This document shows positions 6,903-64,000 of a stretch of DNA of 64,000 bases, piece by piece (position 1 is the stretch's first letter; the number at the start of each line of letters is the position of its first letter). Location: the IMG/VR virus record IMGVR_UViG_3300035187_002895, positions 5,480 to 69,479 of that record; one strand, 5' to 3'. The DNA is from a virus. The notes beneath the pieces were generated by a model. That model worked only from the letters and a program-made list of their open reading frames with translations. It ran no database searches and had not been told where the DNA came from. Position numbers and translations under genes: made by a program.

Positions 6903-6903
6903 A

Positions 6904-7800
6904 TTAACAGTTACAGGATATTTCTTGTGCGGAACAAATTTCTTTAAGTTTTTCGTAAATTTCTGTGGCGGTGGTCCATTCCCCCGATTCCATAGCGTTC
7001 AGCATTCCTACATACATGGCATACACTTCAAGGTAGTCCTCGTTGCATTTGCCACACATAACGCTCTGTAAGAACTCGTAACGCATTCTGTTGAGGCAGT
7101 TCTGAACGAAGCTGTCCACCATTATGCCGGAACTTGCCAAAAACCATCCATTCTGAGTGGCAAGGGAAACATATTCCAGTCCGGGAGTGTAGGTTTCTGT
7201 TATCGGTGCGCCCACCAAAAAAAGCTCATACAGGCCCGTTATTACATTTCCGTCCTCATCCACAGGAAGAGATAAGGAATATTCATAAGGGGCTTCTGCC
7301 TGGTCTGGTTGCGTGTCAGGACCAAGAGTTAGGTTGGGGTTGGTTTTGTCGCTTTTTATTCGGTAAACCGTCCACAGATAGAGTGCGCTTCTTTTGGGCC
7401 TCAATGGGTCAAATACGCTGCTTTCAGGGTTGTATCCCGTTGGATTTGTGGTGGCATTGTATGTCCCCGTTCCATCCGTAACATCTATCTGAGTTTGGTC
7501 TGTATTGATTGTAAGCACCCCCCAACGCAACACAAGGTCTTTAGGAGATTGTGCATCAGGAGTAACAAAGAATGCCACCTGTTGGCTTGAAACCAAAAAG
7601 ACAGGGGAATTTGCTGCTGTGACAAAGAAAGCATCCTGACGGCTTCCTGTGAGGAATATGTTTGCCTCGCTTTTCGTAACGAAAAAGGCATCTGAACGCT
7701 GGCCTGTTTGAAATATGGAAGAGTTCCCTACTGTGTTAAAGAAGGAAACTTTCTTTCCGTTTGTTACGAAAAATGCTACTTTTTTTGTAACTGTAGGCAT
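6904..7800 (-). CDS. Putative tail structural protein
   Basis: 298 aa adjacent to the fibre; five N-terminal (A/S)FF(V/N)T repeats, DGTGTYNATTNPTGY motif, Cys-rich C-terminus. Confidence 0.6.
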   Translation of the reverse strand: MPTVTKKVAFFVTNGKKVSFFNTVGNSSIFQTGQRSDAFFVTKSEANIFLTGSRQDAFFVTAANSPVFLVSSQQVAFFVTPDAQSPKDLVLRWGVLTINTDQTQIDVTDGTGTYNATTNPTGYNPESSVFDPLRPKRSALYLWTVYRIKSDKTNPNLTLGPDTQPDQAEAPYEYSLSLPVDEDGNVITGLYELFLVGAPITETYTPGLEYVSLATQNGWFLASSGIMVDSFVQNCLNRMRYEFLQSVMCGKCNEDYLEVYAMYVGMLNAMESGEWTTATEIYEKLKEICSAQEISCNC

Positions 7801-38424: not shown

Positions 38425-40650
38425 TCAGGCCCTCACCTTTCGCAAAAAAGTTCCCCTCGGAAACAAGTTCGTCCCTGCCTTCACCGTTGTGTTTGCGTAC
38501 AAAAACGGGTTGCTGTATTCGTTCGTGTTGAACTCGTAGAAATGGGCCATTATTGTGGCCATGGTGCTATCACTTTTCGTCCTGTTGGTTATGTCAAACA
38601 TCATGTTGTCATTGATGCTCTGAATGAAAGGATACCGTATCGGTTCCTCAACAATGTTGTAGGTGTGTTCCCCCAGGAAGATGCTGTCCCCCCGAAGGAA
38701 GTCATTGAAGTATGTGGCCCCTTTCCGAACCACATCGTTCCCCTGTCCTTCTATTCCGGTATAGATTCCCACCGTTTCCCATTGAACCTGTGTCGGGCTT
38801 GCTTCGTTCAGGATTTCGGCTTCCCGTAACAGGAACCCTCCATAGCCCCTTGCGCTGAAAAAGTTCTCCACGCTTATTGAGGCGTTATTTTCGATTACAA
38901 TAGGCATGGAGTAGTACACAGCTGCCATAAGCAATTGTTCCATGTCCATGTTCGGATCGGCAGACCGATGCGTAAAGGAAAGGAACACGGCAGGGGTGGG
39001 GAAATAATTCGGCAAATTGTTTCCTGTTGTGGCCCTCACTTTTCTGTTTTCGTCCTCGTATGCCTTGTTGTAGTAGAGTTTGCCCGTTATGGCCATTTTG
39101 GAGCCTTTCCCTTTGGTGCTGGCTTTTAGGTAGGGGTCCACTCCCAAACAACCAAGTTTGCCGTTTACAGGGCATTTTACGCCCCTCTTTATTTGCATCC
39201 TGTTTATGTAGGCAGCAGGAGGTTCCCATGTCCTTTGGACGGTCCCCTTGTTGTCCTCTTTCCATCCCACTACGGTTTTCTCCTTTGGGTCCATCCAATA
39301 GAAGTAGCCCGTCCTCACCATGTCCTGAACGGACTTTATGTCTGCCGTCCTCTTGAGGGACTGGAGAATGGATATGTCGAAAGGGCAATGTTCGTTCAGG
39401 CTATTGAATGCGTCCGAAGGGGTGAAGGGGTTCTGTCGCATTTCCTCTGCGTACAGGTCGTCAAGCCCCGCTTCAAGGAGTTGTTGCCTGTCCCTGCTGA
39501 GTTTGTCCCTGCTCCCTATCCTTTCGTCATGGCCGTGTTTCTGCATCCATTCCCATTGTTCGTCATCGGGGTATTCCACAATGTCGTTCCCGTAGGCATC
39601 CGTCCAACCGGGAAGGCCCATGTAGGCAGGAAGGAACAGGGCTATCAGTTTGTTGGTAGTGGTGGGGTACTTCCCGTTCTGTCGGGTGTCAAGGTTGGCC
39701 TGTTCGTAAAACCTGCGGAACTCCTCGCCTCCCTGGTCGCCCTCTTCCGTTGTGGTGGGAAAGAAAGCAAAGCCCCTTTTGCGGCCATTCACCATCAAGG
39801 CCCTCACCTGTTTGGCCCACCATTTGGTGATTTGAACCTGCACCCATTTACCGCCCTCATCGGCAAAGAGGCCGTTCAGACGCTTTCCATCCCATCCCCG
39901 TTTGGTTAGGGCACGGAGCCTTATGGAGCCTCCAAGGGCCTTGGAAATGCTCGTTGTTTTCTTCGTTTTGGATTGCCGTTCGGGCGGTTCCACAAGAAGG
40001 AGTTCGTTCTTGAGCATCCTGTGGGTGGGAATAAGCCACAAAGGAAGGGACATAACAGGCTTGGAAATGAGTTCGTCAAAGTTCTCATCAGCAAGTTTCT
40101 GGTCGGAAGAAGAAAGCCCTATGTTCTGCTTTTCGGCCCGTATGGCAAGCCAGAACATTATCAGGTGGCCCCAAGTGGAAAGCCCCTCCTGACGGCCTTT
40201 CAGGTAGATAACGCCCAGTTCCTTGTGGTGCTGGAAAACATTCCAACAGAAATGAAGGATTTTCCGTTGGCGGTCCCTGTATTCAAGAAAGCCGTCAGAA
40301 GTTTCAAGGGCGGGTTTCCAATAGTTCAGGCCGAGGTACATCCAAGGGTTTATCCAAGTGAGAACGCCCCTGATATACATCCATTGGCCCGTATGGAAGA
40401 TTTTCTTCACCTCCTCCTTAATGAACTGTTGCTGAAGGGGCGTGTAACGGATGGAGCCGTCATCGGCCCGTTGGCCCTGTTCTATGTTCATGTAGTCAGG
40501 GATGGGCGTTCTTGTGAACTTGGCCTTGGGGTTTCCGTATCCGGGAACGGATGTAAGGTCTTCGGGAATGGGCGGGGAAATGCACTCCAGATTCCATATC
40601 GTTTCTACGATACGGTTTTTAACAAGTTTCTGGTTTTCCTTTAGTAACAT
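38425..40650 (-). CDS. terL: Terminase large subunit
   Basis: LKGRQEGLST (ATPase Walker A variant), LFADEGGKW (Walker B), GVDPY nuclease motif; 741 aa, crAss-like type. Confidence 0.9.
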   Translation of the reverse strand: MLLKENQKLVKNRIVETIWNLECISPPIPEDLTSVPGYGNPKAKFTRTPIPDYMNIEQGQRADDGSIRYTPLQQQFIKEEVKKIFHTGQWMYIRGVLTWINPWMYLGLNYWKPALETSDGFLEYRDRQRKILHFCWNVFQHHKELGVIYLKGRQEGLSTWGHLIMFWLAIRAEKQNIGLSSSDQKLADENFDELISKPVMSLPLWLIPTHRMLKNELLLVEPPERQSKTKKTTSISKALGGSIRLRALTKRGWDGKRLNGLFADEGGKWVQVQITKWWAKQVRALMVNGRKRGFAFFPTTTEEGDQGGEEFRRFYEQANLDTRQNGKYPTTTNKLIALFLPAYMGLPGWTDAYGNDIVEYPDDEQWEWMQKHGHDERIGSRDKLSRDRQQLLEAGLDDLYAEEMRQNPFTPSDAFNSLNEHCPFDISILQSLKRTADIKSVQDMVRTGYFYWMDPKEKTVVGWKEDNKGTVQRTWEPPAAYINRMQIKRGVKCPVNGKLGCLGVDPYLKASTKGKGSKMAITGKLYYNKAYEDENRKVRATTGNNLPNYFPTPAVFLSFTHRSADPNMDMEQLLMAAVYYSMPIVIENNASISVENFFSARGYGGFLLREAEILNEASPTQVQWETVGIYTGIEGQGNDVVRKGATYFNDFLRGDSIFLGEHTYNIVEEPIRYPFIQSINDNMMFDITNRTKSDSTMATIMAHFYEFNTNEYSNPFLYANTTVKAGTNLFPRGTFLRKVRA

Positions 40651-40687
40651 TCTCCGTTTTTTTAAGGGTGTGTGTTTTGGGTAAATA

Positions 40688-40715
40688 GGCGCAATTATGC
40701 GACTATAAAGTAGTT
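40688..40715 (+). other. attI-like recombination site 1
   Basis: GGCGCAATTATGCGACTATAAAGTAG^TT, identical to 43666-43693; ends in the GTT core that begins the first cassette. Confidence 0.75.
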
Positions 40716-41487
40716 AGCCGCAATACAGAGAAACCCTGCCAACCGAAGTGGCGAAGTGTTCTGCATCTTTTTCAATTCCTATGAAATTGCGGTTTAACAT
40801 TTCACAGGCTAATCCTGATTTATTACTACCCATCGTAAAATCTAATACCGTTTGACCTTCCAATGAATAAGTGTTTACTATGTACTTACATAATTCAATA
40901 GGTTTTTCAGTTTTATGAAATGTCTTTCCTTCACTTTCGGCAGTCTTAAAATACTGAACGCTTCGTGGGTATCTTAGCCCATCACTTTTTACTTCAACTT
41001 GTTCAAAACTACCATACACATCATTTTCAGTTTGTTGTTTCCTTACACCTTTATTGTAGGCAGTTCCTTCTGTCATTTGTGGGTAATAAACAGGCGTTCC
41101 TTTGCAGAAAACAACAATATCTTCGTGTGCTACCATTGGTCGTTTCTTAGCGTTTAAGAAGCCTGTTGCCTTTGATTTTTCCCAAACCCAAGTATATTTA
41201 AACATCTTCGGGTTGCTCATTATTAGATTGCTTGTAAATGGTTGCTGTGAATGAAATACTATTGGTGCATTTTGTTTAGATAATCTATTTACTTGTTGCC
41301 ACATTTTTTCAAAGTCTATCACATTATCCCAACTGCATTGTGTAGTGCCAAATGGTAAATCACAATAAATTAAGTCAATACTATTGGATGTTAAAAGCGG
41401 TAAAACTTCAAGGCAATCACCCTGATAGAATGTACTGCGGCTAACATCGGTTTTGCAATAGTGGGGCTTTTGTGCTATATCAATCAT
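40714..41487 (-). CDS. DNA methyltransferase, N6A/N4C family (cassette-borne)
   Basis: GDCLE, DLPFG (DPPY variant), HKTEKP, VLDFTMGS, FIGIE. Starts inside the attC-like site; its stop TAA is the TTA of the core. Confidence 0.9.
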   Translation of the reverse strand: MIDIAQKPHYCKTDVSRSTFYQGDCLEVLPLLTSNSIDLIYCDLPFGTTQCSWDNVIDFEKMWQQVNRLSKQNAPIVFHSQQPFTSNLIMSNPKMFKYTWVWEKSKATGFLNAKKRPMVAHEDIVVFCKGTPVYYPQMTEGTAYNKGVRKQQTENDVYGSFEQVEVKSDGLRYPRSVQYFKTAESEGKTFHKTEKPIELCKYIVNTYSLEGQTVLDFTMGSNKSGLACEMLNRNFIGIEKDAEHFATSVGRVSLYCG

Positions 41488-41569
41488 TTGTAATTCTATT
41501 AAATATTAGTTGTGGGTTGAACATTTGTGCCTTGAAACCCCACCATCGCAAAGCCGTATTCCGTTAGCC
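41436..41569 (+). repeat. attC-like site 1
   Basis: TGCGGCTAAC-ATCGGTTTTGCAATAGTGGGG...CCCCACCATCGCAAAGCCG-TATTCC-GTTAGCC imperfect palindrome. Confidence 0.85.
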
Positions 41570-41570
41570 A

Positions 41571-41786
41571 CTATTGCTTCAATCTCCAAACTTGGTGTAG
41601 TGTATTATCACCTATCATTTCTGCTAAGTGTTTCTCGCAACAATGAGTGTAGTCTTCATAAGTTTTACCCTCTCCAATGTCTTGCACCTGAAATACGGCT
41701 TTGTCGTTACAATTAAGCTCGCAACAGTGCAATGACGGCTGGCTTTGTTCGTTCAATTGTGGTGTTTCAAATAACCTTTCCTGCAT
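41571..41786 (-). CDS. Small Cys/His protein (cassette remnant)
   Basis: 71 aa, CCELNC...HCCEKH possible Zn finger. Confidence 0.55.
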   Translation of the reverse strand: MQERLFETPQLNEQSQPSLHCCELNCNDKAVFQVQDIGEGKTYEDYTHCCEKHLAEMIGDNTLHQVWRLKQ

Positions 41787-41789
41787 ATT

Positions 41790-42215
41790 TCAATCCTTTC
41801 CTTTCCGTTTCTTTTTCAGGGCAAGCTTCAGGTCCTCCACGGCCTTCCGTAGAATCAATGTGCAATTTATAACTTTTTCCGAACTCTGTATCTTCGGGAG
41901 CCGTTTCTGTACCTTCACCAATGCCCTCGTAAGGGCCTGTGCCTCCGTCTTCATCTGGAACGCCTCATAGTCCCGTTCCAATGTGCTATTGGCCGCATAA
42001 GCGGGTAGGCCCCCCTTCCACAATGAACGGCCCGGATAGAAAAAGTTGGTTGGATGGACATACTCCTTCTTGACGGGTCCGAATTGGTGCATTACGGCAG
42101 ACAGGTCGTCATTGACGGCCACCACCTGCCACTTTGCCGTTACATACCGGCCTCTTACAAATATAAAATCGCCAGTCTTTATCATGTGCTTTCTCCGTGT
42201 TGGTTGTCGCTTCAT
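41790..42215 (-). CDS. Hypothetical protein
   Basis: 141-aa ORF with backbone-like composition. Confidence 0.55.
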   Translation of the reverse strand: MKRQPTRRKHMIKTGDFIFVRGRYVTAKWQVVAVNDDLSAVMHQFGPVKKEYVHPTNFFYPGRSLWKGGLPAYAANSTLERDYEAFQMKTEAQALTRALVKVQKRLPKIQSSEKVINCTLILRKAVEDLKLALKKKRKGKD

Positions 42216-42462
42216 GGATGTATTTAACTCGTTTTAAAATGTATTCCTTTTTCGTTTCCGCAAACAGGACAAACTCCCCCTTGTACACCCTCCTCAGATA
42301 CTGCCTGATTTCCATGTAGGTTTGGGTGCGGAAGTAATACTTGCTTACAGGAATGATGTGTCCCAAAGGAAGGGACTGTAGCCTGTCGGCAAATATTTTA
42401 CTCAGCAGTTTCGGGGGTTTCCTTCCCCTTGTTGCCCTTTCTTTCAACAGCCGGACTTTCAT
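42109..42462 (-). CDS. Hypothetical basic protein (possible DNA-binding)
   Basis: 117 aa with RGRKP motif; overlaps neighbours. Confidence 0.45.
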   Translation of the reverse strand: MKVRLLKERATRGRKPPKLLSKIFADRLQSLPLGHIIPVSKYYFRTQTYMEIRQYLRRVYKGEFVLFAETKKEYILKRVKYIHEATTNTEKAHDKDWRFYICKRPVCNGKVAGGGRQ

Positions 42463-42964
42463 GTTTTATTTCCCGTAATGCAGCTTCCAAAGCCCCTTCA
42501 CCAAAATCACTTTCCAGTTTTCCGGTATTGAAGTCGGCCTCGGCCTTTTCATTTTTCTTAAACAAATCTTCTGCCATTCTTTTGATTTCGTCCATGACAG
42601 GCTTTAACTTTAGGCTATTCTCAATCTTAACCTTGTAAGAGGAGTTTTCGTTTGGCCTTCCGTCAGGTTCAGGAGTGCGGATGGATTCGCAGACATTGTG
42701 GTACATTCTCACCATGGACCAATAGGCTTCGGCCTTTATGTTGAGGGCAAAGTGTTCCCTGCTCCCAATCAAAAGGACCTCATCAGGAAGGGAAAACCCC
42801 ACCCTACGGGTTGTTTCGGCCACCCTTCCCTCCCATGTGAGGCTCAGGGGAATCGTGTCGCTGTACACCAACTCCACCCACTCTTTTTGCCTTTCGGTAA
42901 GTTTTATTGTGGGCAGAGAGGATGTACTTAATTCCTCTGAAGGTTGTTTCTTTGACTTCGCCAT
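42398..42964 (-). CDS. Hypothetical protein (candidate terminase small subunit)
   Basis: 188-aa helical protein upstream of terL; candidate by position only. Confidence 0.45.
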   Translation of the reverse strand: MAKSKKQPSEELSTSSLPTIKLTERQKEWVELVYSDTIPLSLTWEGRVAETTRRVGFSLPDEVLLIGSREHFALNIKAEAYWSMVRMYHNVCESIRTPEPDGRPNENSSYKVKIENSLKLKPVMDEIKRMAEDLFKKNEKAEADFNTGKLESDFGEGALEAALREIKHESPAVERKGNKGKETPETAE

Positions 42965-43229
42965 TTTGAATTTGTTCTAAAAGTTGTTCGATTAGGTCCA
43001 CCAGGGGAGGAACCATTCCGATTATGTAGCTGTCCTGTTCGCTATGGATTCCGGTGGCTACAAGAAAGTTGCCCCCTCTAACATAGATTTCATAGCATTT
43101 AAGGTGGTTGTTAAAAACTCTTCTCCAGCAATCCTTGGATGGCGGAAGACAATCCACTCTTTCCGGCCTTTTTTTGGGGCTATCCTTGGTTTGGCCCGTG
43201 TCCTGCTGATCCGTTGGGTTAGTTTCCAT
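42804..43229 (-). CDS. Hypothetical protein
   Basis: 141-aa ORF with A-rich start context. Confidence 0.45.
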   Translation of the reverse strand: METNPTDQQDTGQTKDSPKKRPERVDCLPPSKDCWRRVFNNHLKCYEIYVRGGNFLVATGIHSEQDSYIIGMVPPLVDLIEQLLEQIQNGEVKETTFRGIKYILSAHNKTYRKAKRVGGVGVQRHDSPEPHMGGKGGRNNP

Positions 43230-43351
43230 GATTTTTTAAGGTCTGTTTTTCGTGCCTTTGGGAAGCGTTGGATTCCTGTTTGCATAAATTCCCCGAAGGA
43301 ATAAAACCGAAGCCGTCCTGTGTCCCGTGTCCATTTTTCTGTACCGTCCAT
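43058..43351 (-). CDS. Hypothetical protein
   Basis: 97 aa, TAATG coupling to the upstream gene. Confidence 0.4.
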   Translation of the reverse strand: MDGTEKWTRDTGRLRFYSFGEFMQTGIQRFPKARKTDLKKSWKLTQRISRTRAKPRIAPKKGRKEWIVFRHPRIAGEEFLTTTLNAMKSMLEGATFL

Positions 43352-43629
43352 TATTCATTCAGGAGCGTTTCATACATTTCCAGAAGTGTTTCTGCCTTTA
43401 GAAATTCTGAACTATAGGCAAGGGAGAACCAATTGGGGCAATCTGGAAGGGTTTGGTCCCAATTCCATTTGGTTTTGAGTTGTTCAAAGATTTCCCTTGC
43501 TTTCGGAGGTTCTTCAAAGTCTAATGCGGTAAACAGACGGGAAAGGTCTGATTGCATTTCTTTTTCCTTTCTCACCCAGTAAAGGGACTTCACCTGAAAG
43601 TAGAATGGTATTAATTTGGTTATGTTCAT
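43351..43629 (-). CDS. Hypothetical protein
   Basis: 92-aa ORF beginning just beyond attI-like site 2. Confidence 0.55.
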   Translation of the reverse strand: MNITKLIPFYFQVKSLYWVRKEKEMQSDLSRLFTALDFEEPPKAREIFEQLKTKWNWDQTLPDCPNWFSLAYSSEFLKAETLLEMYETLLNE

Positions 43630-43665
43630 TTCGATTTTGTTTTTGTTTCGCTTTTTGGTCGTGTT

Positions 43666-43693
43666 GGCGCAATTATGCGACTATAAAGTAGTT
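43666..43693 (+). other. attI-like recombination site 2
   Basis: GGCGCAATTATGCGACTATAAAGTAG^TT, 28/28 identical to site 1. Confidence 0.75.
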
Positions 43694-43710
43694 ATAAAAC
43701 ATTAAAACGA

Positions 43711-43859
43711 TTTTATAACAAAGTATATAAGTAATGTTTGGGTTGGTTTACCAATCTAATAACCTTCCAGTAATTAACCACCTCATTCATTAGTAGGGTG
43801 CAAGGTGTTCTCTAAACACGAACCACCCAAACACATACTTATATACTCAATCGTTAGCG
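43711..43859 (+). repeat. attC-like site 2
   Basis: TTTTATAAC-AAAGTATATAAGTAATGTTTGGGT...ACCCAAACACATACTTATATACT-CAATC-GTTAGCG. Confidence 0.85.
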
Positions 43860-44312
43860 GTAATTTAAGACAGAGAACGTGCCAACCTTTGCCTTCTCCC
43901 CGAAAATGATAATACACATCGGCAACCAAAGTCCACGTTCTTCATCATTAAAATTTACCTCGCCATTGATAAAACGAATTTCTGCTTTTACACAAACTTC
44001 CGCCCACCATTTTGTATTGCTTCTTACAGGTATTAAACAAACTTTCGTTCCTCCAAACCTTTCAGCATCATTACACGCTTTTTTTACCCACTTATTCAAA
44101 TCTCTGCTAAATGGTGGGTTCATCCAACAATTACCTTCCCAATTCATAGCAAGTGAATTATCTTCCTTTGTCCAATATTCGGGCAGTTTGTAGTTTAATG
44201 CACTTGCACAAACATCTCTTGTTAAGCCAAATTCGTTTATCAATGGCTGTACTATTTTAAGCGGAGTACTATACTCAACGCTATTACTTTCTCCTACTAC
44301 TTGTGTTCCCAT
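43854..44312 (-). CDS. Phage N6-adenine methyltransferase (Dam-like, PF05869-type), cassette-borne
   Basis: YSTP...DVCAS...WMNPPFS...LIPVRSNTKWW...IRFINGEVNF; stop codon lies in the GTTA core. Confidence 0.85.
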   Translation of the reverse strand: MGTQVVGESNSVEYSTPLKIVQPLINEFGLTRDVCASALNYKLPEYWTKEDNSLAMNWEGNCWMNPPFSRDLNKWVKKACNDAERFGGTKVCLIPVRSNTKWWAEVCVKAEIRFINGEVNFNDEERGLWLPMCIIIFGEKAKVGTFSVLNYR

Positions 44313-44342
44313 ATTTTAAATTTTAATTTCTGAATAATAAAC

Positions 44343-44479
44343 TACCGCTAACACGGGTTTTGCGTCAGCAGGGGTTTCGTTTTTTAATTCAGCTTTTTTT
44401 CATTCTATTAAACTTTAGTTGTTAATTAATCATTTGTGCTTCTAAGCCCTGCCGAACGCAAAGCCCGAAACCGTTACCT
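44343..44479 (+). repeat. attC-like site 3
   Basis: TACCGCTAAC-ACGGGTTTTGCGTCAGCAGGG...CCCTGCCGAACGCAAAGCCCG-AAACC-GTTACCT. Confidence 0.85.
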
Positions 44480-44485
44480 GCAAGG

Positions 44486-44698
44486 CTACGATTGACGTTC
44501 CAAATCAGGCGAAGGCTCACACTTTGTATCGGGCATTTGATTAAAAACTTGTTTAATTGTGCTTACATCATATCCATCGAGTTCCAATGCTAATTCAAGT
44601 GCATTTCTAACTGCATACGGATAATAGCAAGTTTTTAAATCAATGGTTACAATTGGTGTTTGCCTTTCGTCTTGGTTTCTTTCTACAATAATTTTCAT
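44486..44698 (-). CDS. Hypothetical protein (cassette-borne)
   Basis: 70-aa ORF filling the cassette. Confidence 0.6.
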   Translation of the reverse strand: MKIIVERNQDERQTPIVTIDLKTCYYPYAVRNALELALELDGYDVSTIKQVFNQMPDTKCEPSPDLERQS

Positions 44699-44736
44699 TT
44701 CGTTTTTAAATTAAATTCCTACTGATAAACCGCCCA

Positions 44737-44825
44737 GCAGGTAACAGCGGTTTGGCAAAAGCTGCCATTGAAATTTTTGCAAAAATTGAGCATCCGTTAT
44801 GCAGCCTTCGCCAAGCCGAGAACCA
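44737..44825 (+). repeat. attC-like site 4 (right core lost)
   Basis: GCAGGTAAC-AGCGGTTTGGCAAAAGCTGC...GCAGCCTTCGCCAAGCCG-AGAACC, then ATC where GTT is expected. Confidence 0.8.
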
Positions 44826-45098
44826 TCATCCCTTCCATATCACAAGGTGTTTAGGGCCGTTTTCAGAGGCCAAATGAAAATCATACCGGAAACGACCCTT
44901 CACCCCGTTCAGCTTCCGCCATCGGGCAAAAGTGGACCTCACCGTGTCGTATTGGTCCCTTCCCACTCCCAACAGAACCACATAGGTTACATTCGGATGC
45001 AGAAAGTTCGTGTAGTCGTATGTCAAAGGACGGCCCCGCCCGTCTGACTTGGGAAACAATGGGGCCTCCGTTTTCTTCTTCTTCTTCTTCGTTTTCAT
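44826..45098 (-). CDS. Hypothetical basic protein (possible DNA-binding)
   Basis: 90 aa, poly-Lys and GRGRP motif. Confidence 0.55.
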   Translation of the reverse strand: MKTKKKKKKTEAPLFPKSDGRGRPLTYDYTNFLHPNVTYVVLLGVGRDQYDTVRSTFARWRKLNGVKGRFRYDFHLASENGPKHLVIWKG

Positions 45099-45733
45099 TT
45101 CCGTCTTCGTTTCACATATCCCATCCGTTCCGCATCAGGGCCGTGAGCCAGCACCATCCTTCTGCGAACCAAAAAGCCTCCGTCCCATCCCACACGAACA
45201 TTGGATTCGTCCCCCCAAAAGAGAACGGTGTTTTCGGGGAAGTGTTCGTTCTGTCCCGATACCACTCCCCTATCGGTGTAGAACTCCCGTATCTTTTCCA
45301 CGGGCTTTTGGAGGGTGTCGTAACTTATCAATTCCACATTGGGAAGAATCAGGCCCGATTTGGACCGGGCCGTTTGTATGGGCTTGCAATAAATGTACTC
45401 CCCCACCATTCGGTCCCCAACGCTTATGATGCTCTGAGGAAGCACAAGAAGGTGTCCGTTTATCTTCGGGGTGTTTCCCTTGTAAGTGGAATGGGCCTCC
45501 GAAAACCAAAACCGAACCTTTTCCCCCACAATGGGGGTGTTCAGTTCGTCCTTGAGCGGGGCCTTTACCACCGTTCCCTCCTCGCATAACCCGTTCGTTT
45601 CGTTGTATATATTGGAAGGGGCATGGAGCAAAAGGGTTCCGTGCTGTATGGTTTCCTCGTAAATGCCACGGATGGCAACAAGGTATTCCCTGATGGGTTG
45701 GAGGTTGGGGGTATATTCCGTTACGAAAGCCAT
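45095..45733 (-). CDS. Tandem GroES-like domain protein
   Basis: Two GroES-like halves (LQPIREYLV...EGTVVKAP...VGEKV; EYIYCKPI...KSGLILP...RGVV). Confidence 0.6.
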   Translation of the reverse strand: MAFVTEYTPNLQPIREYLVAIRGIYEETIQHGTLLLHAPSNIYNETNGLCEEGTVVKAPLKDELNTPIVGEKVRFWFSEAHSTYKGNTPKINGHLLVLPQSIISVGDRMVGEYIYCKPIQTARSKSGLILPNVELISYDTLQKPVEKIREFYTDRGVVSGQNEHFPENTVLFWGDESNVRVGWDGGFLVRRRMVLAHGPDAERMGYVKRRRK

Positions 45734-46023
45734 TACAACAGGATGCAGTGAATGTCGTGTTCCCGAAGGATGAGGTATTCCACCTTGTCAAATTCCACCC
45801 TTGTTCCGGCCCCTTTTGTGTAAAGGACCTTTTGGCTGTGTTTGATTATTTCGCATTTGTTTCCTACACAAATCACTTCTCCTTGGGGAGGGGATTCCTT
45901 TGCGGTATCGGGAATGATAAGGGTTCCTTTTTCGTCATAGAAATCAGCGGGTTTGTCAGGAAGCACAAGTACCCTTGTGTCCACCATCACTACATTGGGA
46001 TGTTTCATTTTTTGTTTTTGCAT
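45733..46023 (-). CDS. groES: Co-chaperonin GroES
   Basis: RVLVLP...GTLIIPDTAKESPPQGEVICVG...KVLYTKGAGTRV...EYLILREHDI. Confidence 0.9.
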   Translation of the reverse strand: MQKQKMKHPNVVMVDTRVLVLPDKPADFYDEKGTLIIPDTAKESPPQGEVICVGNKCEIIKHSQKVLYTKGAGTRVEFDKVEYLILREHDIHCILL

Positions 46024-46030
46024 TAGCGCA

Positions 46031-46060
46031 CAAATGTAAAGGGATTATTTCACAATCAAA
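46031..46060 (-). promoter_or_regulatory. Bacteroidota-type promoter for groES
   Basis: Minus strand TTTG-N18-TACATTTG. Confidence 0.55.
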
Positions 46061-46109
46061 ACAAAAAAAATTCAGGCTTTATTTTCCGGTTTCGCTTTGC
46101 TGGCAAATA

Positions 46110-46137
46110 GGCGCAATTGTTCGCATACAGCGTAGTT
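46110..46137 (+). other. attI-like recombination site 3 (variant)
   Basis: GGCGCAATT-GTTCGCATACAGC-GTAG^TT: same first 9 bp, same length and same GTAGTT end as sites 1 and 2. Confidence 0.7.
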
Positions 46138-46142
46138 ATGTG

Positions 46143-46370
46143 TCATTTTAGACGAGCATACCATTTCAATCTATCATCATTACCAATTTCAACCAATTCA
46201 AATTTAACCGTTCTGTTTTCTAAGATAGCCCAAGGATGAAAATTAAAACTCAAAGGGTCTATTGGTAATTCACCATTTCTATTACCAGTTAAATTTGAAT
46301 TATCGCACTTTACAACCCAATAAGGTTCAATGTTGAAATTGGTTGATTTAATTAAAGTTCCTGTTTCCAT
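46143..46370 (-). CDS. Hypothetical protein (cassette-borne)
   Basis: ORF 46143..46469; likely start METG at 46370, since the longer form reads through the attC-like site. Confidence 0.55.
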   Translation of the reverse strand: METGTLIKSTNFNIEPYWVVKCDNSNLTGNRNGELPIDPLSFNFHPWAILENRTVKFELVEIGNDDRLKWYARLK

Positions 46371-46389
46371 ATTTATTTGAATTAAAAAC

Positions 46390-46486
46390 GACACATAACA
46401 AAGTGTATAAGAAAGTTTGCTATAAAGTTTAGTGCTAATTTGAAAGTTTCTACAAGCAAACCTTCTCATACACCCAGTCGTTATAG
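46390..46486 (+). repeat. attC-like site 5
   Basis: GACACATAAC-AAAGTGTATAAGAAAGTTTGCT...AGCAAACCTTCTCATACAC-CCAGTC-GTTATAG. Confidence 0.85.
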
Positions 46487-46492
46487 GTAAGG

Positions 46493-46735
46493 CTAAAGAC
46501 CGAGTAACTCCGACAATTCATTTTGCTTTTTAGTTAGCCATTCCTTTGCTAATCTTTTACCATCTTCTAAATCGTAGCCTTCTCCGATATATTCGTTTCC
46601 AATAGTTACAGAATAGCTATCACTTTCTTTCCATCCTTTCCATTCAATTAGGCATTGACCTAATGGTGTTTCAGAAATAACGTGAGTATAATGGCTCACT
46701 CCTTGTTTTGGGTCTTTTGGTTCTGTCCAATTCAT
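46493..46735 (-). CDS. Hypothetical protein (cassette-borne)
   Basis: 80-aa ORF filling the cassette. Confidence 0.65.
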   Translation of the reverse strand: MNWTEPKDPKQGVSHYTHVISETPLGQCLIEWKGWKESDSYSVTIGNEYIGEGYDLEDGKRLAKEWLTKKQNELSELLGL

Positions 46736-46759
46736 TTTATTAAAATTTGTGAGAAGCCC

Positions 46760-46894
46760 TACCTATAACAGCACATAGGCAATATGGTGGGGTTCTCGGT
46801 TAATATTAAGTTTCGTTTTCAATTCATGTTTTGTGCTTACAGAGAGGTTAGTGTTCCAAAATCCGCCACATCGCCTATCTGCATCACGTTAGTA
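46760..46894 (+). repeat. attC-like site 6
   Basis: TACCTATAAC-AGCACATAGGCAATATGGTGG...CCGCCACATCGCCTATCTGC-ATCAC-GTTAGTA. Confidence 0.85.
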
Positions 46895-46900
46895 GCCATT

Positions 46901-47383
46901 TTAGGACAGACGTACATACCGCCCTTTAATGCTACAATTTTTTAGTATTTCAGCGTTTTCTTCACCATAAGCAATCAATACGCTTGGTGCTCCAGCCGTT
47001 CCACCTTTTTCGCCTGTAACGTGGTAAAAAGACAATCTACCTTTAATGAATAGTATTGCAGTTGCTTTATCCCATACACATTTAAAAAACATTTTCGTTT
47101 CAGTCCTTGCAAAAGTCAAGGCTATACAATTTCCGTGCATTACTGCCTTTTCTAAAAAAAGTTCTGTGTATTTTCCGTAAGGTGGATTACACCAAACTCT
47201 ACCATACCAATTTTGCATCAGTCCGTTATCATTAATATTAAAATGATTTTTAGCTGTGTCCCAAGGTCTTTCAATCGGGCTACACGGATCTAAATCAAAT
47301 TCGCCTAATGCTTTTACTAATTCGGGTGGGGTAAGCCACTCGTCTTTTCCTGTACTTGTATTACCTTCAAATGTTACATTCAT
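46901..47383 (-). CDS. Phage N6-adenine methyltransferase (Dam-like, PF05869-type), cassette-borne
   Basis: DEWLTPP...FDLDPCS...VWCNPPYG...ARTET...LFIKGRLSF. Confidence 0.9.
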   Translation of the reverse strand: MNVTFEGNTSTGKDEWLTPPELVKALGEFDLDPCSPIERPWDTAKNHFNINDNGLMQNWYGRVWCNPPYGKYTELFLEKAVMHGNCIALTFARTETKMFFKCVWDKATAILFIKGRLSFYHVTGEKGGTAGAPSVLIAYGEENAEILKNCSIKGRYVRLS

Positions 47384-47411
47384 ATTTTTTAAATTAATTC
47401 GTAAAAAAAAC

Positions 47412-47511
47412 GGCTACTAACACGCAATTGGCAAAATAAAAGCCATCAAGTGTAGTGCTAAACTTCAACGGTAGTGCAAGGCTTTTACTTCGCCAATCGC
47501 CACCGTTACCA
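47412..47511 (+). repeat. attC-like site 7
   Basis: GGCTACTAAC-ACGCAATTGGCAAAATAAAAGCC...GGCTTTTACTTCGCCAATCGC-CACC-GTTACCA. Confidence 0.85.
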
Positions 47512-47517
47512 CCAATG

Positions 47518-47931
47518 CTATAAGACACGGTAGTAGTTCTTTTCAAATATTCTGACAACCATATCACGTTCCCATTTTGACAACTTTGACTGTTTGTTTT
47601 GAATAAGTCCATATTCTTTGACAATATCAGTTCTATCAGGCAATTTGCGTTCATATCGACTTTCTCCATACCCATACAAATCATTCATATAAGGCATATA
47701 AATCATTGAAGCCATTGCCATAATTCCACCAAGTTTTGATGAAACGTGTTTATGTTTCCTTTGCTCTGTTTTTATCGGAGCATATTTTACACCGTTTAAA
47801 TCAAAACTTTCATCGTATGAATGTGAATTTGGTTCATCAACTATAATCACATCAACACCTTTGTTTTTTAATGCTTCGGCAACTGCTTTCCCAGAGCCAT
47901 CAATTCCAATTATTCCTATTTTATTTTCCAT
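47518..47931 (-). CDS. Hypothetical protein with Rossmann-like N-terminus (cassette-borne)
   Basis: 137 aa starting KIGIIGIDGSGKAVAEAL..GVDVIIVD. Confidence 0.6.
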   Translation of the reverse strand: MENKIGIIGIDGSGKAVAEALKNKGVDVIIVDEPNSHSYDESFDLNGVKYAPIKTEQRKHKHVSSKLGGIMAMASMIYMPYMNDLYGYGESRYERKLPDRTDIVKEYGLIQNKQSKLSKWERDMVVRIFEKNYYRVL

Positions 47932-47962
47932 TTGTTTGTTAAATTAAATTCATTAAAAGCAC

Positions 47963-48052
47963 TGGTGGTAACAGCACATAAGCAAAAGCCCAAAATCCAA
48001 CCGCACAATGCCACCGCTATTTGTGCCTTCGCTTATCTGCAAAACGTTACCG
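47963..48052 (+). repeat. attC-like site 8
   Basis: TGGTGGTAAC-AGCACATAAGCAAAAGCCCAAA...TTTGTGCCTTCGCTTATCTGC-AAAAC-GTTACCG. Confidence 0.85.
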
Positions 48053-48072
48053 CACCACCTTACCGCACCACC
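48047..48072 (+). repeat. 13-bp direct tandem duplication at the right junction of array 3
   Basis: TTACCGCACCACC twice, starting exactly at the G^TT position. Confidence 0.8.
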
Positions 48073-48080
48073 CCTCCTGC

Positions 48081-48488
48081 TCACTGCACCACCTCATTTC
48101 CCCGCCTGAGTTCCCTTTGGTTTCCGGTTTCGGTTTTGTGGCATCCCTTACACAACACTTCCAACAGGGAAGGGTCCTCCACGAAAAGCCGTTCACAAAA
48201 TCCCGGAAGGTCTTCGTATCTCCGAAGGCTCCCAACAGGAACGATGTGGTTCACTTCTACATTCCTCCTGTCGTAAAACCTTTGGCAGCGGGAACACAAG
48301 TAGGCCACCCGCTTACTGCGGCCCACATACGAAACGGATGAGGCCCGTTTCAGGGCTACATTGAAGGGCTTCCACCAACGGGATAGGTTCCGTAACGCTG
48401 ACCGTATCTTGCCCATATGGGCCGATTGCGTTTCCGTTCCGCTGTTGCGGGTCCGCTCAACTCTGGGGGCTTTTACCGTTCGTTTCAC
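48081..48488 (-). CDS. HNH-family endonuclease-like protein
   Basis: CSRC...EVNHIVPVG...LEVLCKGCH. Confidence 0.75.
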   Translation of the reverse strand: MKRTVKAPRVERTRNSGTETQSAHMGKIRSALRNLSRWWKPFNVALKRASSVSYVGRSKRVAYLCSRCQRFYDRRNVEVNHIVPVGSLRRYEDLPGFCERLFVEDPSLLEVLCKGCHKTETGNQRELRRGNEVVQ

Positions 48489-49024
48489 TCTCTTTCAAAA
48501 ATCAAATTGTTGTCAAGGCAATGGAACACCTGAAGGAAGTACCGCCTGTCCCTGGGGTGTACTTCCCCCGTGTAACTCTTGTATGTCCTCCCGTTTGTCA
48601 TCCGTATCTTGTGCATCGGGTAGGTTCGCAACAGGTCCGATTCCCGTTCCGTAAAGGTGAAGTAGGCTTCCCCCGAACAATTGAAAGGCTTCCATGATTT
48701 CTTCACCAGTTTGGCCCCGTTCTCAAACAGGACGATGATTTCATCGTTTTCGTTACAGGCCCCAAGGCCCACCATCAAAACGGATACCACAACGCTCAGG
48801 TCGTCCCGGATAATGGGGCTGACAATAAAGCCGAGTTTGCTCGTTTCGTTGGCCACCACAAAGTCCCGTGTGGTGAACAGGTAGGACTTACCCGACATTT
48901 GGTCGGTTTCCCTGTAAATGAAAACGCTGTCGGACTTTTTGAAAGCGTAAACCGTGTCAGGGGACTGTCCCGAAGCACAGGAAAGGGACAGGGCAAAGGA
49001 AAGGGCCGTTATGAAGTGTTTCAT
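48485..49024 (-). CDS. Exported protein with signal peptide
   Basis: MKHFITALSFALSLSCASGQ signal-like N-terminus; host-like periplasmic protein. Confidence 0.6.
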   Translation of the reverse strand: MKHFITALSFALSLSCASGQSPDTVYAFKKSDSVFIYRETDQMSGKSYLFTTRDFVVANETSKLGFIVSPIIRDDLSVVVSVLMVGLGACNENDEIIVLFENGAKLVKKSWKPFNCSGEAYFTFTERESDLLRTYPMHKIRMTNGRTYKSYTGEVHPRDRRYFLQVFHCLDNNLIFERE

Positions 49025-53018: not shown

Positions 53019-53217
53019 AGTAATCTGTTCCGTGCAAATATTTTCCATCATCGGCAAAAGGGTTTTCGCCTTTATCAAAAACCTCCGCTATCTGCTCCTT
53101 CTCCATTGCCCTGCCCCGTTCCTTAATGGCCTTCCACTTTTCAAATGTTTCTATTGTAATTAAAGCTTCAATCTCTTTAATCATCCACTCTACTGCCGTT
53201 ATCTGTTTATTTTCCAT
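52981..53217 (-). CDS. TAVEW-family small protein
   Basis: KQITAVEWM...AMEKEQI...DYYEETY. Confidence 0.65.
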   Translation of the reverse strand: MENKQITAVEWMIKEIEALITIETFEKWKAIKERGRAMEKEQIAEVFDKGENPFADDGKYLHGTDYYEETYKSKTDAV

Positions 53218-53470
53218 AGGTTTCGGTGTAGTATTCCTGTCCGGTTTTAATGCCGTACAAATTGGTTCCATTTACATCTGTTATGGTGGTTTTTCGGCCA
53301 TGTGCAGCAATTATTTGGTCCTTCTCCATTGCTTTGGCCTTCTCAAATTTTTCATACCAATTTTGGCTCTTATCTTTTTTATTCCATAAATTTTTGAACA
53401 ACCATTCAGAAGCCATTGGCTCATTCCATAATTGTTCAAATAGCCATTCTACCGCAGTTTGCTCTTTCAT
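53207..53470 (-). CDS. TAVEW-family small protein
   Basis: EQTAVEWL...AKAMEKDQI...EYYTETY; internal EWLF..LWN duplication. Confidence 0.65.
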   Translation of the reverse strand: MKEQTAVEWLFEQLWNEPMASEWLFKNLWNKKDKSQNWYEKFEKAKAMEKDQIIAAHGRKTTITDVNGTNLYGIKTGQEYYTETYGK

Positions 53471-53691
53471 AGTTTTTCTATTTCTTGTTTTACCTCTAAT
53501 AAATAATCAAATATCCCTAACCATTCTTCAAATCTTCTTGGTTGTTGATTTTCCCATAGATCTAATAACTCATCACAAACATAGGTAGCTATTGTTTTAG
53601 CTATGAGTTTATTCTTATCATGAGATAACTCAGTACACCATCTACTATATGCATCATTATATAATTGTAATGCTTTTTCTTGTGCTTTCAT
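53467..53691 (-). CDS. Hypothetical small protein
   Basis: MKAQEKA...EVKQEIEKL. Confidence 0.6.
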   Translation of the reverse strand: MKAQEKALQLYNDAYSRWCTELSHDKNKLIAKTIATYVCDELLDLWENQQPRRFEEWLGIFDYLLEVKQEIEKL

Positions 53692-53701
53692 AGATTTTAA
53701 T

Positions 53702-54007
53702 TTAACAAACTGAACATCCAATTTTACCAGGTCTTTCCATTCTTAAAACGCCTTGCCTACAATTCGGGCAAATGTTTTTTCCTTCATTGAATGTAACCTC
53801 GTAGAAGTAATCTATGCCCTTAAAATCGTCATCATCATTTGACAAATACCCAAAATGAATGGCCTTCTCCATTTGCTCCTTCTCCATTTCCTTAGCCTTT
53901 TCAATCAATTCGTACATAACGCCATGAACGCCCACCGTTTCCTCAAGTTTGACAAACTCGGCCTCAAGCCACTCAACTGCCGTCTGCTGTTTCCGTTCCG
54001 TTTCCAT
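53702..54007 (-). CDS. TAVEW-family small protein with Zn-ribbon tail
   Basis: KQQTAVEWL...AKEMEKEQM...YFYEVTF, followed by CPNC...CSVC. Confidence 0.65.
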   Translation of the reverse strand: METERKQQTAVEWLEAEFVKLEETVGVHGVMYELIEKAKEMEKEQMEKAIHFGYLSNDDDDFKGIDYFYEVTFNEGKNICPNCRQGVLRMERPGKIGCSVC

Positions 54008-62081: not shown

Positions 62082-62582
62082 ATGAATTTGTTTCAAATTA
62101 CACAGGAATTTCTCGAACTGGCCTCCCTCATTGAGGAGGCCGGGGGCGAGGTGAACGATGCCATCCTTGAGGAACTGGCCATCAGTCGGGGCAACTTCGC
62201 CCACAAGGCGGAAGGATACACGAAATTGATTCTCAAATGGGAATCCGAATCGGAGGCCGCATCAGCGGAAATCAAACGGATACAGGCCCTGAAAAAGACG
62301 AAGGACAACGCCATAGCCCGTCTGAGGGACACGCTCCTACAGGCCCTTATGGTGTTCGGGTCTGAGGACAGCAAGGGAATCAAGCGTTACGAAACGGCCC
62401 TGTTGAAGCTTTCCACAAGGCGTTCCGCTGCCGTGGAAATTACGGACGAAACGGCCCTGCCGGAAGAGGCTTTCGTGATTAAACGGGAAGTGTCCAAGAC
62501 GGCCATCAAACGGCTTCTGGAAGACGGAATGGAGATTGATGGGGCCGCTATTAAGGAGAATGTATCTTTGCAGATAAGATGA
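62082..62582 (+). CDS. Siphovirus Gp157-like protein
   Basis: MNLFQIT...AEIKRIQALKK...STRRSAAVEI...SKTAIK...G.EIDGA...SLQIR. Confidence 0.8.
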   Translation: MNLFQITQEFLELASLIEEAGGEVNDAILEELAISRGNFAHKAEGYTKLILKWESESEAASAEIKRIQALKKTKDNAIARLRDTLLQALMVFGSEDSKGIKRYETALLKLSTRRSAAVEITDETALPEEAFVIKREVSKTAIKRLLEDGMEIDGAAIKENVSLQIR

Positions 62583-64000
62583 GATACGGCTCAGTTTGTT
62601 CAGGAATAGAGGCGGCTTCCGTAGCATGGGAGCCGCTTTCCTGGCAAGCCCAATGGTTTGCCGAAATTGAACACTTCCCTTCCGCAGTTCTTGCCCACCG
62701 ATTCCCAACGGTTCCGAATTTGGGGGACATGACTAAAATTCACGAAACAAAACAATTTCAAAATGCAAATATTGATTTGCTTGTTGGAGGCACACCTTGT
62801 TTTGCGTTAGGAACTCCAATTGTTACAAGCAGGGGCATAATTCCTATAGAAGATGTTGTGGTTGGTGATATGGTTCTAACTCACAAATTAAGATGGAAGC
62901 CGGTTCTTGCAATTGGTAGCAAAGAAGCAGAAACCGTAATGCTTGGTGGACATGGGAATGGTGGTATAGAAACCACTCCAGAGCATCCATTTTATAGCAA
63001 GATTAAGAATCAAATTTGGAACAATTCAAAACGGATGTACGAAAGGAATTTGTCTCAAGATGCAGAATGGATTGAAGCCAAAGATATGGTGGGTAGGTTT
63101 TGGGGAATCCCAACAAGTGGAGAATTATTGCCGATTCCTCCAATCACATTAAGCGGGAACGAAACACATCTTCCAATAATGAATCAAAGTTTCTATTGGG
63201 TAGTTGGTGCGTGGCTTGGTGATGGATGGACAAGGATTTCGGAAAGGCGTAGCTATGTCTTGATTTGTGCAGACAAAAACAATCACAAATCCATAGCACA
63301 GCATTTAGATGGATGCAATCTAAAATACTCCATTTCTGAAGAAAGAACCACAATAAAGTATCAAATAGCCTCTTCTGCATTGGCTAAATGGCTTGTTGCA
63401 AATTTCAACAAGGGAGCAAAGAATAAAACCCTTGCTTCCTGGGTGCTGTTTGGGCTAAGTGAAGAAAGTAAGAAATCGCTTTTTGATGGATATTGCTTTG
63501 CTGATGGCTACAAGATTTATAATAACAAACAAGATCAAAATGGTTTTGGAGCAACTACAATAAGCCAATGTCTTGCCACAGGAATAAGACTTTTGGCGGC
63601 ATCACTTGGCTATTCGGTTGGAGAAAATTATTGCAAACCCAAGAGAAGAGTTACCACAATTGAGGGGCGCAGAGTTAATGAACAACCATTCTATCAGATA
63701 AGGTTTCACTCCCATAGCCGTTCTGCTGTTCAAGAAAATGGGATACTTTGGCAAAAAACAAAAACATACAAACAAACCAATGCAATTAGAACTGTTTCCA
63801 ATATCGAAGTTGCCGACGACAACAGTTATGTCGCTGGAGGGATTATCGTCCACAACTGCCAATCCTTCTCCGTCGCCGGACTTCGAAAGGGACTGGATGA
63901 CCCTCGTGGTCAACTCATGTACACCTTTGTTGAACTTGCTGCTCGAAAGAGGCCCAAGTGGGTGGTTTGGGAGAACGTCCCCGGAGTCCTATCCTCTAAC
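62579..64000 (+). CDS. dcm: C5-cytosine DNA methyltransferase with intein (partial, runs off window)
   Basis: Manual translation: MRYGSVCSGIEAA...DLLVGGTP[intein]CQSFSVAG...WENVPG. Absent from the ORF track because there is no stop in the window. Confidence 0.92.
   Translation, partial: MRYGSVCSGIEAASVAWEPLSWQAQWFAEIEHFPSAVLAHRFPTVPNLGDMTKIHETKQFQNANIDLLVGGTPCFALGTPIVTSRGIIPIEDVVVGDMVLTHKLRWKPVLAIGSKEAETVMLGGHGNGGIETTPEHPFYSKIKNQIWNNSKRMYERNLSQDAEWIEAKDMVGRFWGIPTSGELLPIPPITLSGNETHLPIMNQSFYWVVGAWLGDGWTRISERRSYVLICADKNNHKSIAQHLDGCNLKYSISEERTTIKYQIASSALAKWLVANFNKGAKNKTLASWVLFGLSEESKKSLFDGYCFADGYKIYNNKQDQNGFGATTISQCLATGIRLLAASLGYSVGENYCKPKRRVTTIEGRRVNEQPFYQIRFHSHSRSAVQENGILWQKTKTYKQTNAIRTVSNIEVADDNSYVAGGIIVHNCQSFSVAGLRKGLDDPRGQLMYTFVELAARKRPKWVVWENVPGVLSSN
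62798..63856 (+). mobile_element. Intein with LAGLIDADG homing endonuclease (353 aa)
   Basis: Begins CFALGTPIVT, block B TPEHPFY, VGAWLGDG and FDGYCFADG motifs, ends GGIIVHN followed by Cys; in frame. Confidence 0.92.

Follow-up and report, generated by a model that had tools for sequence, protein, structure and literature searches.

A conserved 50-bp element at the head of gene cassette arrays in a lake-water phage, a putative attI-like docking site

Three arrays of small gene cassettes, each headed by a copy of one conserved DNA element of about 50 bp (here called the platform), lie in a 64,000-nucleotide (nt) stretch of phage DNA (positions 5,480 to 69,479 of IMG/VR record IMGVR_UViG_3300035187_002895; hereafter the window). 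The record is a virus contig of 69.5 kb from a lake-water phage, 72% complete, with a terminase distantly related (26% identity) to those of Flavobacterium and Cellulophaga phages. An integron is defined by its integrase together with the attI site of that enzyme; phage arrays that have no integrase have so far been regarded as stray pieces (CALINs, clusters of attC sites without integrase). We describe the platform, the cassette junction in which it ends and its relatives in other phages, and we propose that it may serve as a docking site for cassettes.

Platform copies and cassette arrays in the window

The 28-mer GGCGCAATTATGCGACTATAAAGTAGTT occurs exactly at 40688-40715 and 43666-43693, and no further copy with up to 3 mismatches was found in the window (0 expected in 100 shuffles). 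The pattern GGCGCAATT-N13-GTAGTT adds a third site at 46110-46137 (GGCGCAATTGTTCGCATACAGCGTAGTT), giving 3 matches against 0.11 expected, a number reached by 0 of 100 shuffles. The 9-nt start of the 28-mer is not enriched by itself (22 matches at up to 1 mismatch, 17.4 expected). The third site differs from the 28-mer at 7 positions, and the same variant stands at array heads in two related contigs (L024 and L025). AAATA precedes sites 1 and 3, and GTTTCGCTTT precedes sites 2 and 3. All of this agrees with an earlier note on this DNA, made from the letters of the sequence, which had reported the identical pair, the variant with the same 9-nt start and GTAGTT end, and both upstream similarities. 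Its length of 28 nt was an underestimate, however; an alignment (A2) shows similarity beginning about 22 nt before the 28-mer and ending at GTAGTT(A/G), so that the conserved element runs over about 50 bp from GTTTCGCTTT...GGCAAATA into GGCGCAATT-N13-GTAGTT (consensus, GTTTCGCTTTnCnGGCAAATA and then the 28-mer).

All three arrays begin at the motif, which is absent elsewhere in the window, and one block of low-GC DNA (32-40% GC, with a backbone of 44-55% GC) lies to the right of each copy (Table 1). Cassettes have the order TTAxxx, minus-strand open reading frame (ORF), xxxTAAC, hairpin, G. The cargo consists of one N6_N4 methylase, two Dam-family methylases and several small ORFs without known function, and all seven cargo ORFs are on the minus strand and read toward the platform. 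A script detected seven imperfect hairpins of the form xxxTAAC, stem, loop, stem, GTTAxxx, to which an eighth at 44739-44835, without the closing GTT, was added; the same scan of the 64 kb found none outside the three arrays. The hairpins all lie to the right of the three motifs, which bears out the earlier observation that the motif is confined to array heads. An A follows AAC in 8 of 8 hairpins and a C precedes GTT in 7 of 7, and the arm beside GTT has 3-4 more unpaired bases on the unit-carrying strand (7 of 7). Fold z-scores are mixed (−5.3 to +0.6). The hairpins have the inverse core (...AAC) and core (GTT...) by which the imperfect hairpins of integron cassettes are recognized.

Table 1. 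Platform copies, cassettes and associated features of the window
Feature	Positions	Strand	Details
Platform copy 1	40688-40715	+	Type v1 28-mer; GTT 40713-40715 is the left junction of array 1
Platform copy 2	43645-43693	+	28-mer 43666-43693 with the upstream GTTTCGCTTT... part; GTT 43691-43693 is the left junction of array 2
Platform copy 3	46088-46137	+	Variant 28-mer 46110-46137 with upstream GTTTCGCTTTGCTGGCAAATA; GTT 46135-46137 is the left junction of array 3
Array 1, cassette 1	40714-41563	+	850 nt; frame GTTAGCC...GGCTAAC (41439-41445), hairpin, G
Array 1 cargo	40714-41487	-	N6_N4 DNA methylase; stop codon within the junction TTA
Array 2, cassette 1	43692-43853	+	162 nt, no ORF; TTATAA..., TTATAAC (43713-43719), hairpin, G
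Array 2, cassette 2	43854-44473	+	620 nt; frame GTTAGCG...CGCTAAC (44346-44352), hairpin, G
Array 2, cassette 2 cargo	43854-44312	-	Dam-family methylase
Array 2, last cassette	44474-44830	+	GTTACCT..., AGGTAAC (44739-44745), hairpin ending without GTT
Array 2, last cassette cargo	44486-44698	-	70-aa ORF
Array 3	46136-48046	+	Four cassettes, all cargo on the minus strand
Array 3, cassette 1	46136-46480		345 nt
Array 3, cassette 2	46481-46888		408 nt
Array 3, cassette 3	46889-47505		617 nt; Dam-family methylase 46901-47383 (-)
Array 3, cassette 4	47506-48046		541 nt; 137-aa ORF 47518-47931 (-)
TACATTTG	46031-46038	-	Match to TAnnTTTG; between platform copy 3 and the cpn10-like gene

The last cassette of array 2 forms the tail of the array and adjoins a backbone ORF (44826-45098); array 3 ends in GTTACCG (48046-48052) before an HNH gene (48081-48488). 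Platform copy 1 lies 37 nt upstream of the ATG of the terminase large subunit gene (38425-40650, minus strand; phrog_6681). The annotated start codon of the array 1 methylase falls inside the loop of the cassette hairpin (41439-41569), and the Pfam match starts at residue 37. Either part of the hairpin is coding or translation really begins further inside the gene. In the first cassette of array 2, about 10 nt separate the complementary boxes, and the hairpin that follows is the best folding of the window (z = −5.3).

The head junction

The comparison covered 14 sites on 10 contigs (viral or metagenomic), 3 of the sites being in the window and the other 11 in relatives; three records were left out as duplicates, L040 (of L031) and L083 and L085 (both of G001). 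Upstream of the sites, 7 groups of unrelated flanks can be told apart; downstream, the first cassette is of 12 different kinds. The 50-bp element is present at one array end only, always on the same side, and the arrays are its sole constant neighbor. At 13 of the 14 sites, the inner end of the first hairpin (score of at least 20) carries a perfect reverse complement of the 7-mer GTTxxxx at the junction; at the 14th, the 7-mer is present and the hairpin is weak. Random GTTnnnn controls gave 1 of 279. The rule also holds along the arrays, where the 7-mer at each GTT recurs, reverse complemented, inside the next hairpin. Integrons follow this rule, the inner box of a cassette's own recombination site being complementary to the bases with which the cassette begins. 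Because the heads obey it at this rate against the control, the GTT of the motif is a real cassette junction, as had been claimed when it was named the crossover of the first cassette, and the bases after ...GTAG therefore belong to the cassette.

Relatives of the platform

IMG/VR (2.9 million viral contigs) was scanned for GGCGCAATT-N13-GTAGTT, which returned 53 loci, 43 unrelated and 10 (9 contigs) true homologues; a relaxed search within those loci added one degenerate copy (in L038). A scan of a metagenome collection gave 3 loci, all of them array heads and two of them the source contig of G001. Searched alone, the left half of the element gave 8 matches, all at known heads. No match to the platform was found among cultured phages (INPHARED). 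A motif search in phage and Bacteroidota sequences had been suggested as a check; in the collections searched, the true homologues stand at array heads and none was found away from arrays. A tRNA-like string in L038 yielded no gene with ARAGORN.

In contig L025, both flanks of array 3 are 98.7-99.3% identical to those of the window. The match continues across the motif as far as 46142 and there gives way to other cassettes, among them, in the array 3 slot, the Dam cassette of the window's array 2 (94% identity). The more distant G001, a complete genome of 39.2 kb with terminal repeats, has two platform copies, one identical at 28 of 28 positions. G001 and the window have in common the platform, one 296-nt stretch at 69% identity, three proteins and almost no other DNA, and because they share so little else, the platform is far better conserved than its surroundings. 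It is the sole stretch at 90-100% identity between otherwise unrelated backbones. Together, the 7 upstream contexts and the two nearly dissimilar backbones tie the element to the arrays and not to any neighboring gene. The sharing of a platform and little else suggests that the platform itself may be selected or mobile.

The 137-aa cassette ORF has 93 homologues in a protein collection, and only 2, then 5, IMG/VR loci were found for it. One phage with this cassette (L088) has a head (reverse complement, about 7480-7535) that reads ...TTTCATAAAGTAGTCTGTT followed by ATGTG. In this head (...CATAAAGTAGTCTGTT, then ATGTG), AAAGTAGT is held in common with the platform and the GGCGCAATT half is missing.

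A sister system in cultured Flavobacterium phages

Parts of the window cassettes match Flavobacterium phages isolated from the Baltic, and the hairpin at 46763-46894 has a counterpart with 87% identity in Flavobacterium phage hattifnatt9-1. The arrays of the isolates have about 10-13 cassettes and follow the same 7-mer rule. Their head differs in sequence and ends in ...ATATTGTAGTT (including GTAGTT). All 46 INPHARED records with this head have it at 100% identity; in 44 of them (the query phage's own GenBank and RefSeq records excluded), similarity stops 1-3 nt past the head GTT. A 784-nt methylase cassette with exact ends (GTTATAA...hairpin...C before the next GTTA) was found at array position 1, 1, 2, 2, 2 or 4 in six isolates (five of the six aligned), with different left and right neighbors. 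The hairpin that moves with a gene in this unit is the one upstream of the start codon. Exact ends in varied positions define the mobile unit as TTAxxx, cargo, xxxTAAC, hairpin and G, and the varied positions also imply that cassettes are gained or lost directly at the head. In these phages, methylase content is associated with the efficiency of plating on a second host (Nilsson et al. 2020, PMC7077304), and the available portion of that paper mentions cassettes and hairpins 0 times each.

Cargo orientation and relatives on plasmids

The window hairpin at 44346-44479 and both ends of its frame match a lnu(H) cassette on an Empedobacter plasmid (74.7% identity over 157 nt; E value, 2e-17), and the end sequences GTTAGCGGTAATTT and AAACTACCGCTAAC are identical between the Dam cassette and the lnu(H) cassette. 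The frame is not flipped, with lnu(H) on the frame strand and Dam on the opposite strand. An array on an Emticicia plasmid follows the same 7-mer rule and also has its cargo on the frame strand. As the frames are the same and the cargo is opposite in phages and plasmids, the cargo pool of the phages seems to be a mirror image. Genes adjoining the arrays on the tail side have the direction of the cargo in the phages examined. Low-GC cargo with structured intergenic repeats, the trait of rAID-1-type arrays, is shared with Bacteroidota replicons.

The Empedobacter brevis plasmid (NZ_CP043636; L093, locus 5950-7150) carries lnu(H), perhaps with arr before it, in a cassette frame with hairpins of the same family; the cassette system of Bacteroidota therefore also carries antibiotic resistance genes on plasmids. 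The Emticicia plasmid has a single tyrosine recombinase gene (Pfam PF00589), which was set aside as irrelevant to the array because it forms a pair with an IS91 transposase and is 33 kb away. Cellulophaga phage phi13:2 (L087; 11.5-18 kb of the record) has a row of about 14 small plus-strand genes leading up to a tyrosine recombinase of 428 aa, and each of these genes has its stop followed by xxxTAAC and a conserved half-element of about 25 nt. The row was rejected as the same system, since the recombinase matches only XerD-type NCBIfam models, and weakly (29.5 bits; cutoff, 329.6), with no match to an integron-integrase model, and the elements are half-sites and not full hairpins. It may represent a cassette row that has decayed or is of another kind, with a recombinase to itself.

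Interpretation

We propose that the element of about 50 bp is a double-stranded, nonhairpin docking site analogous to attI of integrons. A site-specific recombinase supplied in trans, most likely from the class of host tyrosine recombinases, would recognize the platform and recombine it with a circular cassette, the exchange taking place at or within the GTT on one side and at the folded hairpin site on the other; the cassette-specific TTAxxx would then abut the constant ...GTAG of the platform. In contrast to integrons, the cargo, mainly orphan DNA methylases, reads toward the platform, which is also the direction of the phage operons. One phage has the platform at three places, and it is present in unrelated phages as well. 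Such an attI-like docking site is the best explanation of the data and a probable one, although unproven. Insertion at the platform, as opposed to excision or replacement, would be the event that it presupposes.

Several results weigh against this proposal. Searches for PF00589 found no tyrosine recombinase in the window's incomplete 69.5-kb contig, in 5 related records (the complete G001 and 4 fragments) or in 5 complete isolate genomes, with 14 of 14 known genomes recovered as a positive control; any recombinase must therefore come from elsewhere. An empty platform, in which GTAGTT would run directly into the common tail GTTACCCCTCCCC, was looked for in IMG/VR; the 5 matches were all unrelated, and the tail alone was found only in L033, L038 and L043. 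Among 185,579 bacterial and archaeal species representatives of GTDB, the platform gave 19 matches at the stringency used, 0 of them related, so it is not an obvious copy of a host attI. Cassette differences between isolates lie inside arrays as often as at the head, as in the roughly 1.5 kb extra after the 784-nt unit in filifjonk9-1 versus mumin6-1 and the 780-nt internal insertion in morran9-1 versus lillamy9-1; the head is thus not alone as an active junction. Types v1 and v3 differ at 7 positions in the 13-nt middle of the 28-mer, so recognized bases, if any, are few. Cargo faces the platform, the opposite of integrons. A 50-bp repeat can also give rise to chimeric metagenome assemblies, and the breaks in Logan contigs fall exactly at the motifs. 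The assignment of arrays to backbones is therefore less firm than the structure of the junctions, which is present also in cultured, individually sequenced phages. One Logan contig (run X3) joining 46134 to 47505, the platform to the GTT of the fourth cassette, was discounted (depth, 2.3; short side, 25 nt at 90%), and joints of 40723 to 44698, 40725 to 47969 and 46113 to 47955 were considered unreliable (sides of 21-26 nt).

The claim that the motif is the primary double-stranded integration site consequently stands in part. The GTT junction, the tie to arrays and the restriction to arrays in the collections searched uphold it as a site, and its rank as primary is weakened by the want of a recombinase gene and an empty site and by the internal differences among isolates. 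The label attI-like is likewise retained as the best reading with a qualifier, because the cargo points toward the site and the host phylum is reported to be almost without classical integrons.

A promoter was at first the main rival account, since each of the three window copies sits 36-100 nt upstream of a minus-strand backbone gene (terminase, cpn10-like and a 92-aa ORF). In the wider form of this account, the platform would regulate the array or the adjoining gene, as a promoter, operator or terminator or as a signal for RNA processing, and cassettes would merely end there; type v1 does contain a 4-bp CGCA/TGCG mini-hairpin. That mini-hairpin is lost in type v3, however, and copies 2 and 3 fold no better than shuffles (z = −0.3 to −0.7). 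In G001, both copies come after the stop codons of plus-strand genes and face the 3' ends of cassette genes, one of them directly behind a terminator made of a hairpin and a T-run; lying between converging genes, the platform cannot be a promoter and nothing else. Such a terminator also precedes the platform in the L033/L038a/L043 context, 0 of 10 sigma-70-like matches overlap the motif, Rfam gave 0 matches at E values up to 1 (window positions 40000-48500), and no gene is a constant neighbor, only the array. By eye, the platform contains no TAnnTTTG, the −7 promoter box of Bacteroidota; copy 3 has a match to it 70 nt further on (TACATTTG), and the cpn10-like operon may thus have its own promoter separate from the platform. 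Altogether, we regard a regulatory role as the explanation of the platform as quite unlikely.

The platform could also be a fossil, the terminus of an array or a former attI that moved with whole arrays by illegitimate or homologous recombination and is no longer used for insertion in phages, present variation arising from hairpin-by-hairpin exchange and from homologous recombination between coinfecting phages. The missing recombinase gene and empty site, the internal differences of sister arrays and the imprecise tail of array 3 between the window and L025 would all be expected of it. A fossil end should, however, have kept one ancestral first cassette or decayed, and 12 different first cassettes follow one head with the 7-mer rule intact; the platform alone is 90-100% identical between unrelated backbones, and cassettes are gained or lost next to heads that are 100% identical among isolates. 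This account is unlikely, in our view, with a somewhat better claim than regulation. Far less credible is an accident of secondary sites, in which the GTT of the motif is one of many GTTs used at low frequency and the conservation around it is unrelated. Heads of other lineages do share only GTAGTT, or AAAGTAGT in L088, and the Emticicia plasmid head ends in GAGAGTT. Random secondary sites would not be expected to have shared flanks, though, and the platform has three copies in one phage and 14 sites in all, with the same 50-bp context on the same side of the array.

Returning to the docking-site proposal, a wider version of it, tentative and with rather less than an even chance of being right, is that lytic Bacteroidota phages own portable, enzyme-less docking sites that spread and multiply and that borrow a recombinase to capture phage-specific, mirror-oriented cassettes. 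If so, the captured cassettes would be mostly antirestriction methylases placed at the ends of phage operons, and cassette capture would be a general phage-side route to retune host range with borrowed machinery. The conserved head in multiple copies across unrelated phages suggests working capture platforms served by a trans-supplied recombinase, and such capture would occur in a phylum nearly without classical integrons. Given the methylase cargo and its link with plating efficiency, the platform may bear on the speed of host-range evolution in phages. It is also a short, testable DNA target, and the cultured Flavobacterium phage-host pairs with the sister head are suited to a search for the recombinase.

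Comparison with known systems

Integron attI sites (attI1 and the Shewanella type) are likewise double stranded and nonpalindromic, stand at one array end only and have their conserved part 5' of the GTT where cassette-specific sequence starts; integron cassettes likewise have an imperfect hairpin with an inner box complementary to the cassette's own first bases. The platform, a conserved 50-bp element that does not fold and lies at one end only, may be the counterpart of the attI at the integrase-proximal end of an integron, although no integrase gene was found to which it could be proximal. Type v1 and the 28-nt Shewanella attI printed in PMC9892861 align with a score reached by 7 of 5,000 shuffles; the likeness fails for types v3 (2,241 of 5,000) and v4 (452 of 5,000) and is for that reason a weak lead only. 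The platform differs from integrons in that no gene for IntI, a tyrosine recombinase with a characteristic insertion, was found beside it, beside the arrays or elsewhere in the phage records searched, in that the site has three copies in one genome and in that the cargo reads toward it, a direction never observed in integrons according to the available portion of Nivina et al. (2016, PMC5027507). The extra unpaired bases of the cassette hairpins lie by the GTT arm, which differs from the attC layout given there. For Bacteroidetes, an almost complete lack of classical integrons has been reported (Néron et al. 2022, bioRxiv 10.1101/2022.02.28.482270).

CALINs in phages (Qi et al. 2023, PMC9892861) are likewise phage-borne arrays without an integrase and with methyltransferase cargo. 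In its available portion, that paper gives examples in virulent phages, including the Bacteroidota phage Polaribacter P12002L; it also notes GTTRRRY motifs at the edges of arrays and, in a Shewanella prophage, a CALIN that starts with an attI. It describes the usual gene orientation and, in the same portion, no conserved head element of the present kind, common to several arrays and to unrelated phages; such an element was also absent from the listings returned by literature searches. No comparable hairpin chain or head was found in the 8 kb of Polaribacter phage P12002L that were scanned. rAID-1 (Ross et al. 2019, bioRxiv 10.1101/471110) is, in the part of that preprint consulted, likewise a low-GC gene-capture array of Bacteroidota with repetitive, integron-like intergenic sequences. 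A distinct motif immediately 3' of the recombinase gene is placed there like a head site. The rAID-1 arrays, from gut Bacteroidales, have a 5' XerD-like recombinase and genes reading away from it, whereas the phage arrays have genes reading toward the head and, in the records searched, no XerD-like recombinase gene at the 5' end.

Short conserved elements also bound accessory genes in quite another setting, and the junction of the platform, with its cassette-specific complementary boxes and exact GTT breakpoints, has the signature of site-specific exchange. Promoter-stem-loop elements (PeSLs) of T4-type lytic phages are short, conserved, noncoding elements that bound swappable accessory genes, and they are thought to serve as promoters and as homology patches for recombination. 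The platform junction is unlike them in bearing the signature just named.

Other observations in the window

A family of small minus-strand genes with a conserved start (plus-strand repeat ATTTGCTCCTTCTCCATTGC) lies at 53090-53915; the family occurs three times in the window, four times in L012 and once each in L040 and L051, and its members look like paralogous genes and not cassette sites. A C-5 cytosine DNA methylase gene at 62579-64000, running off the end of the window, contains an intein (Hint_2, Intein_splicing) between two methylase stretches.

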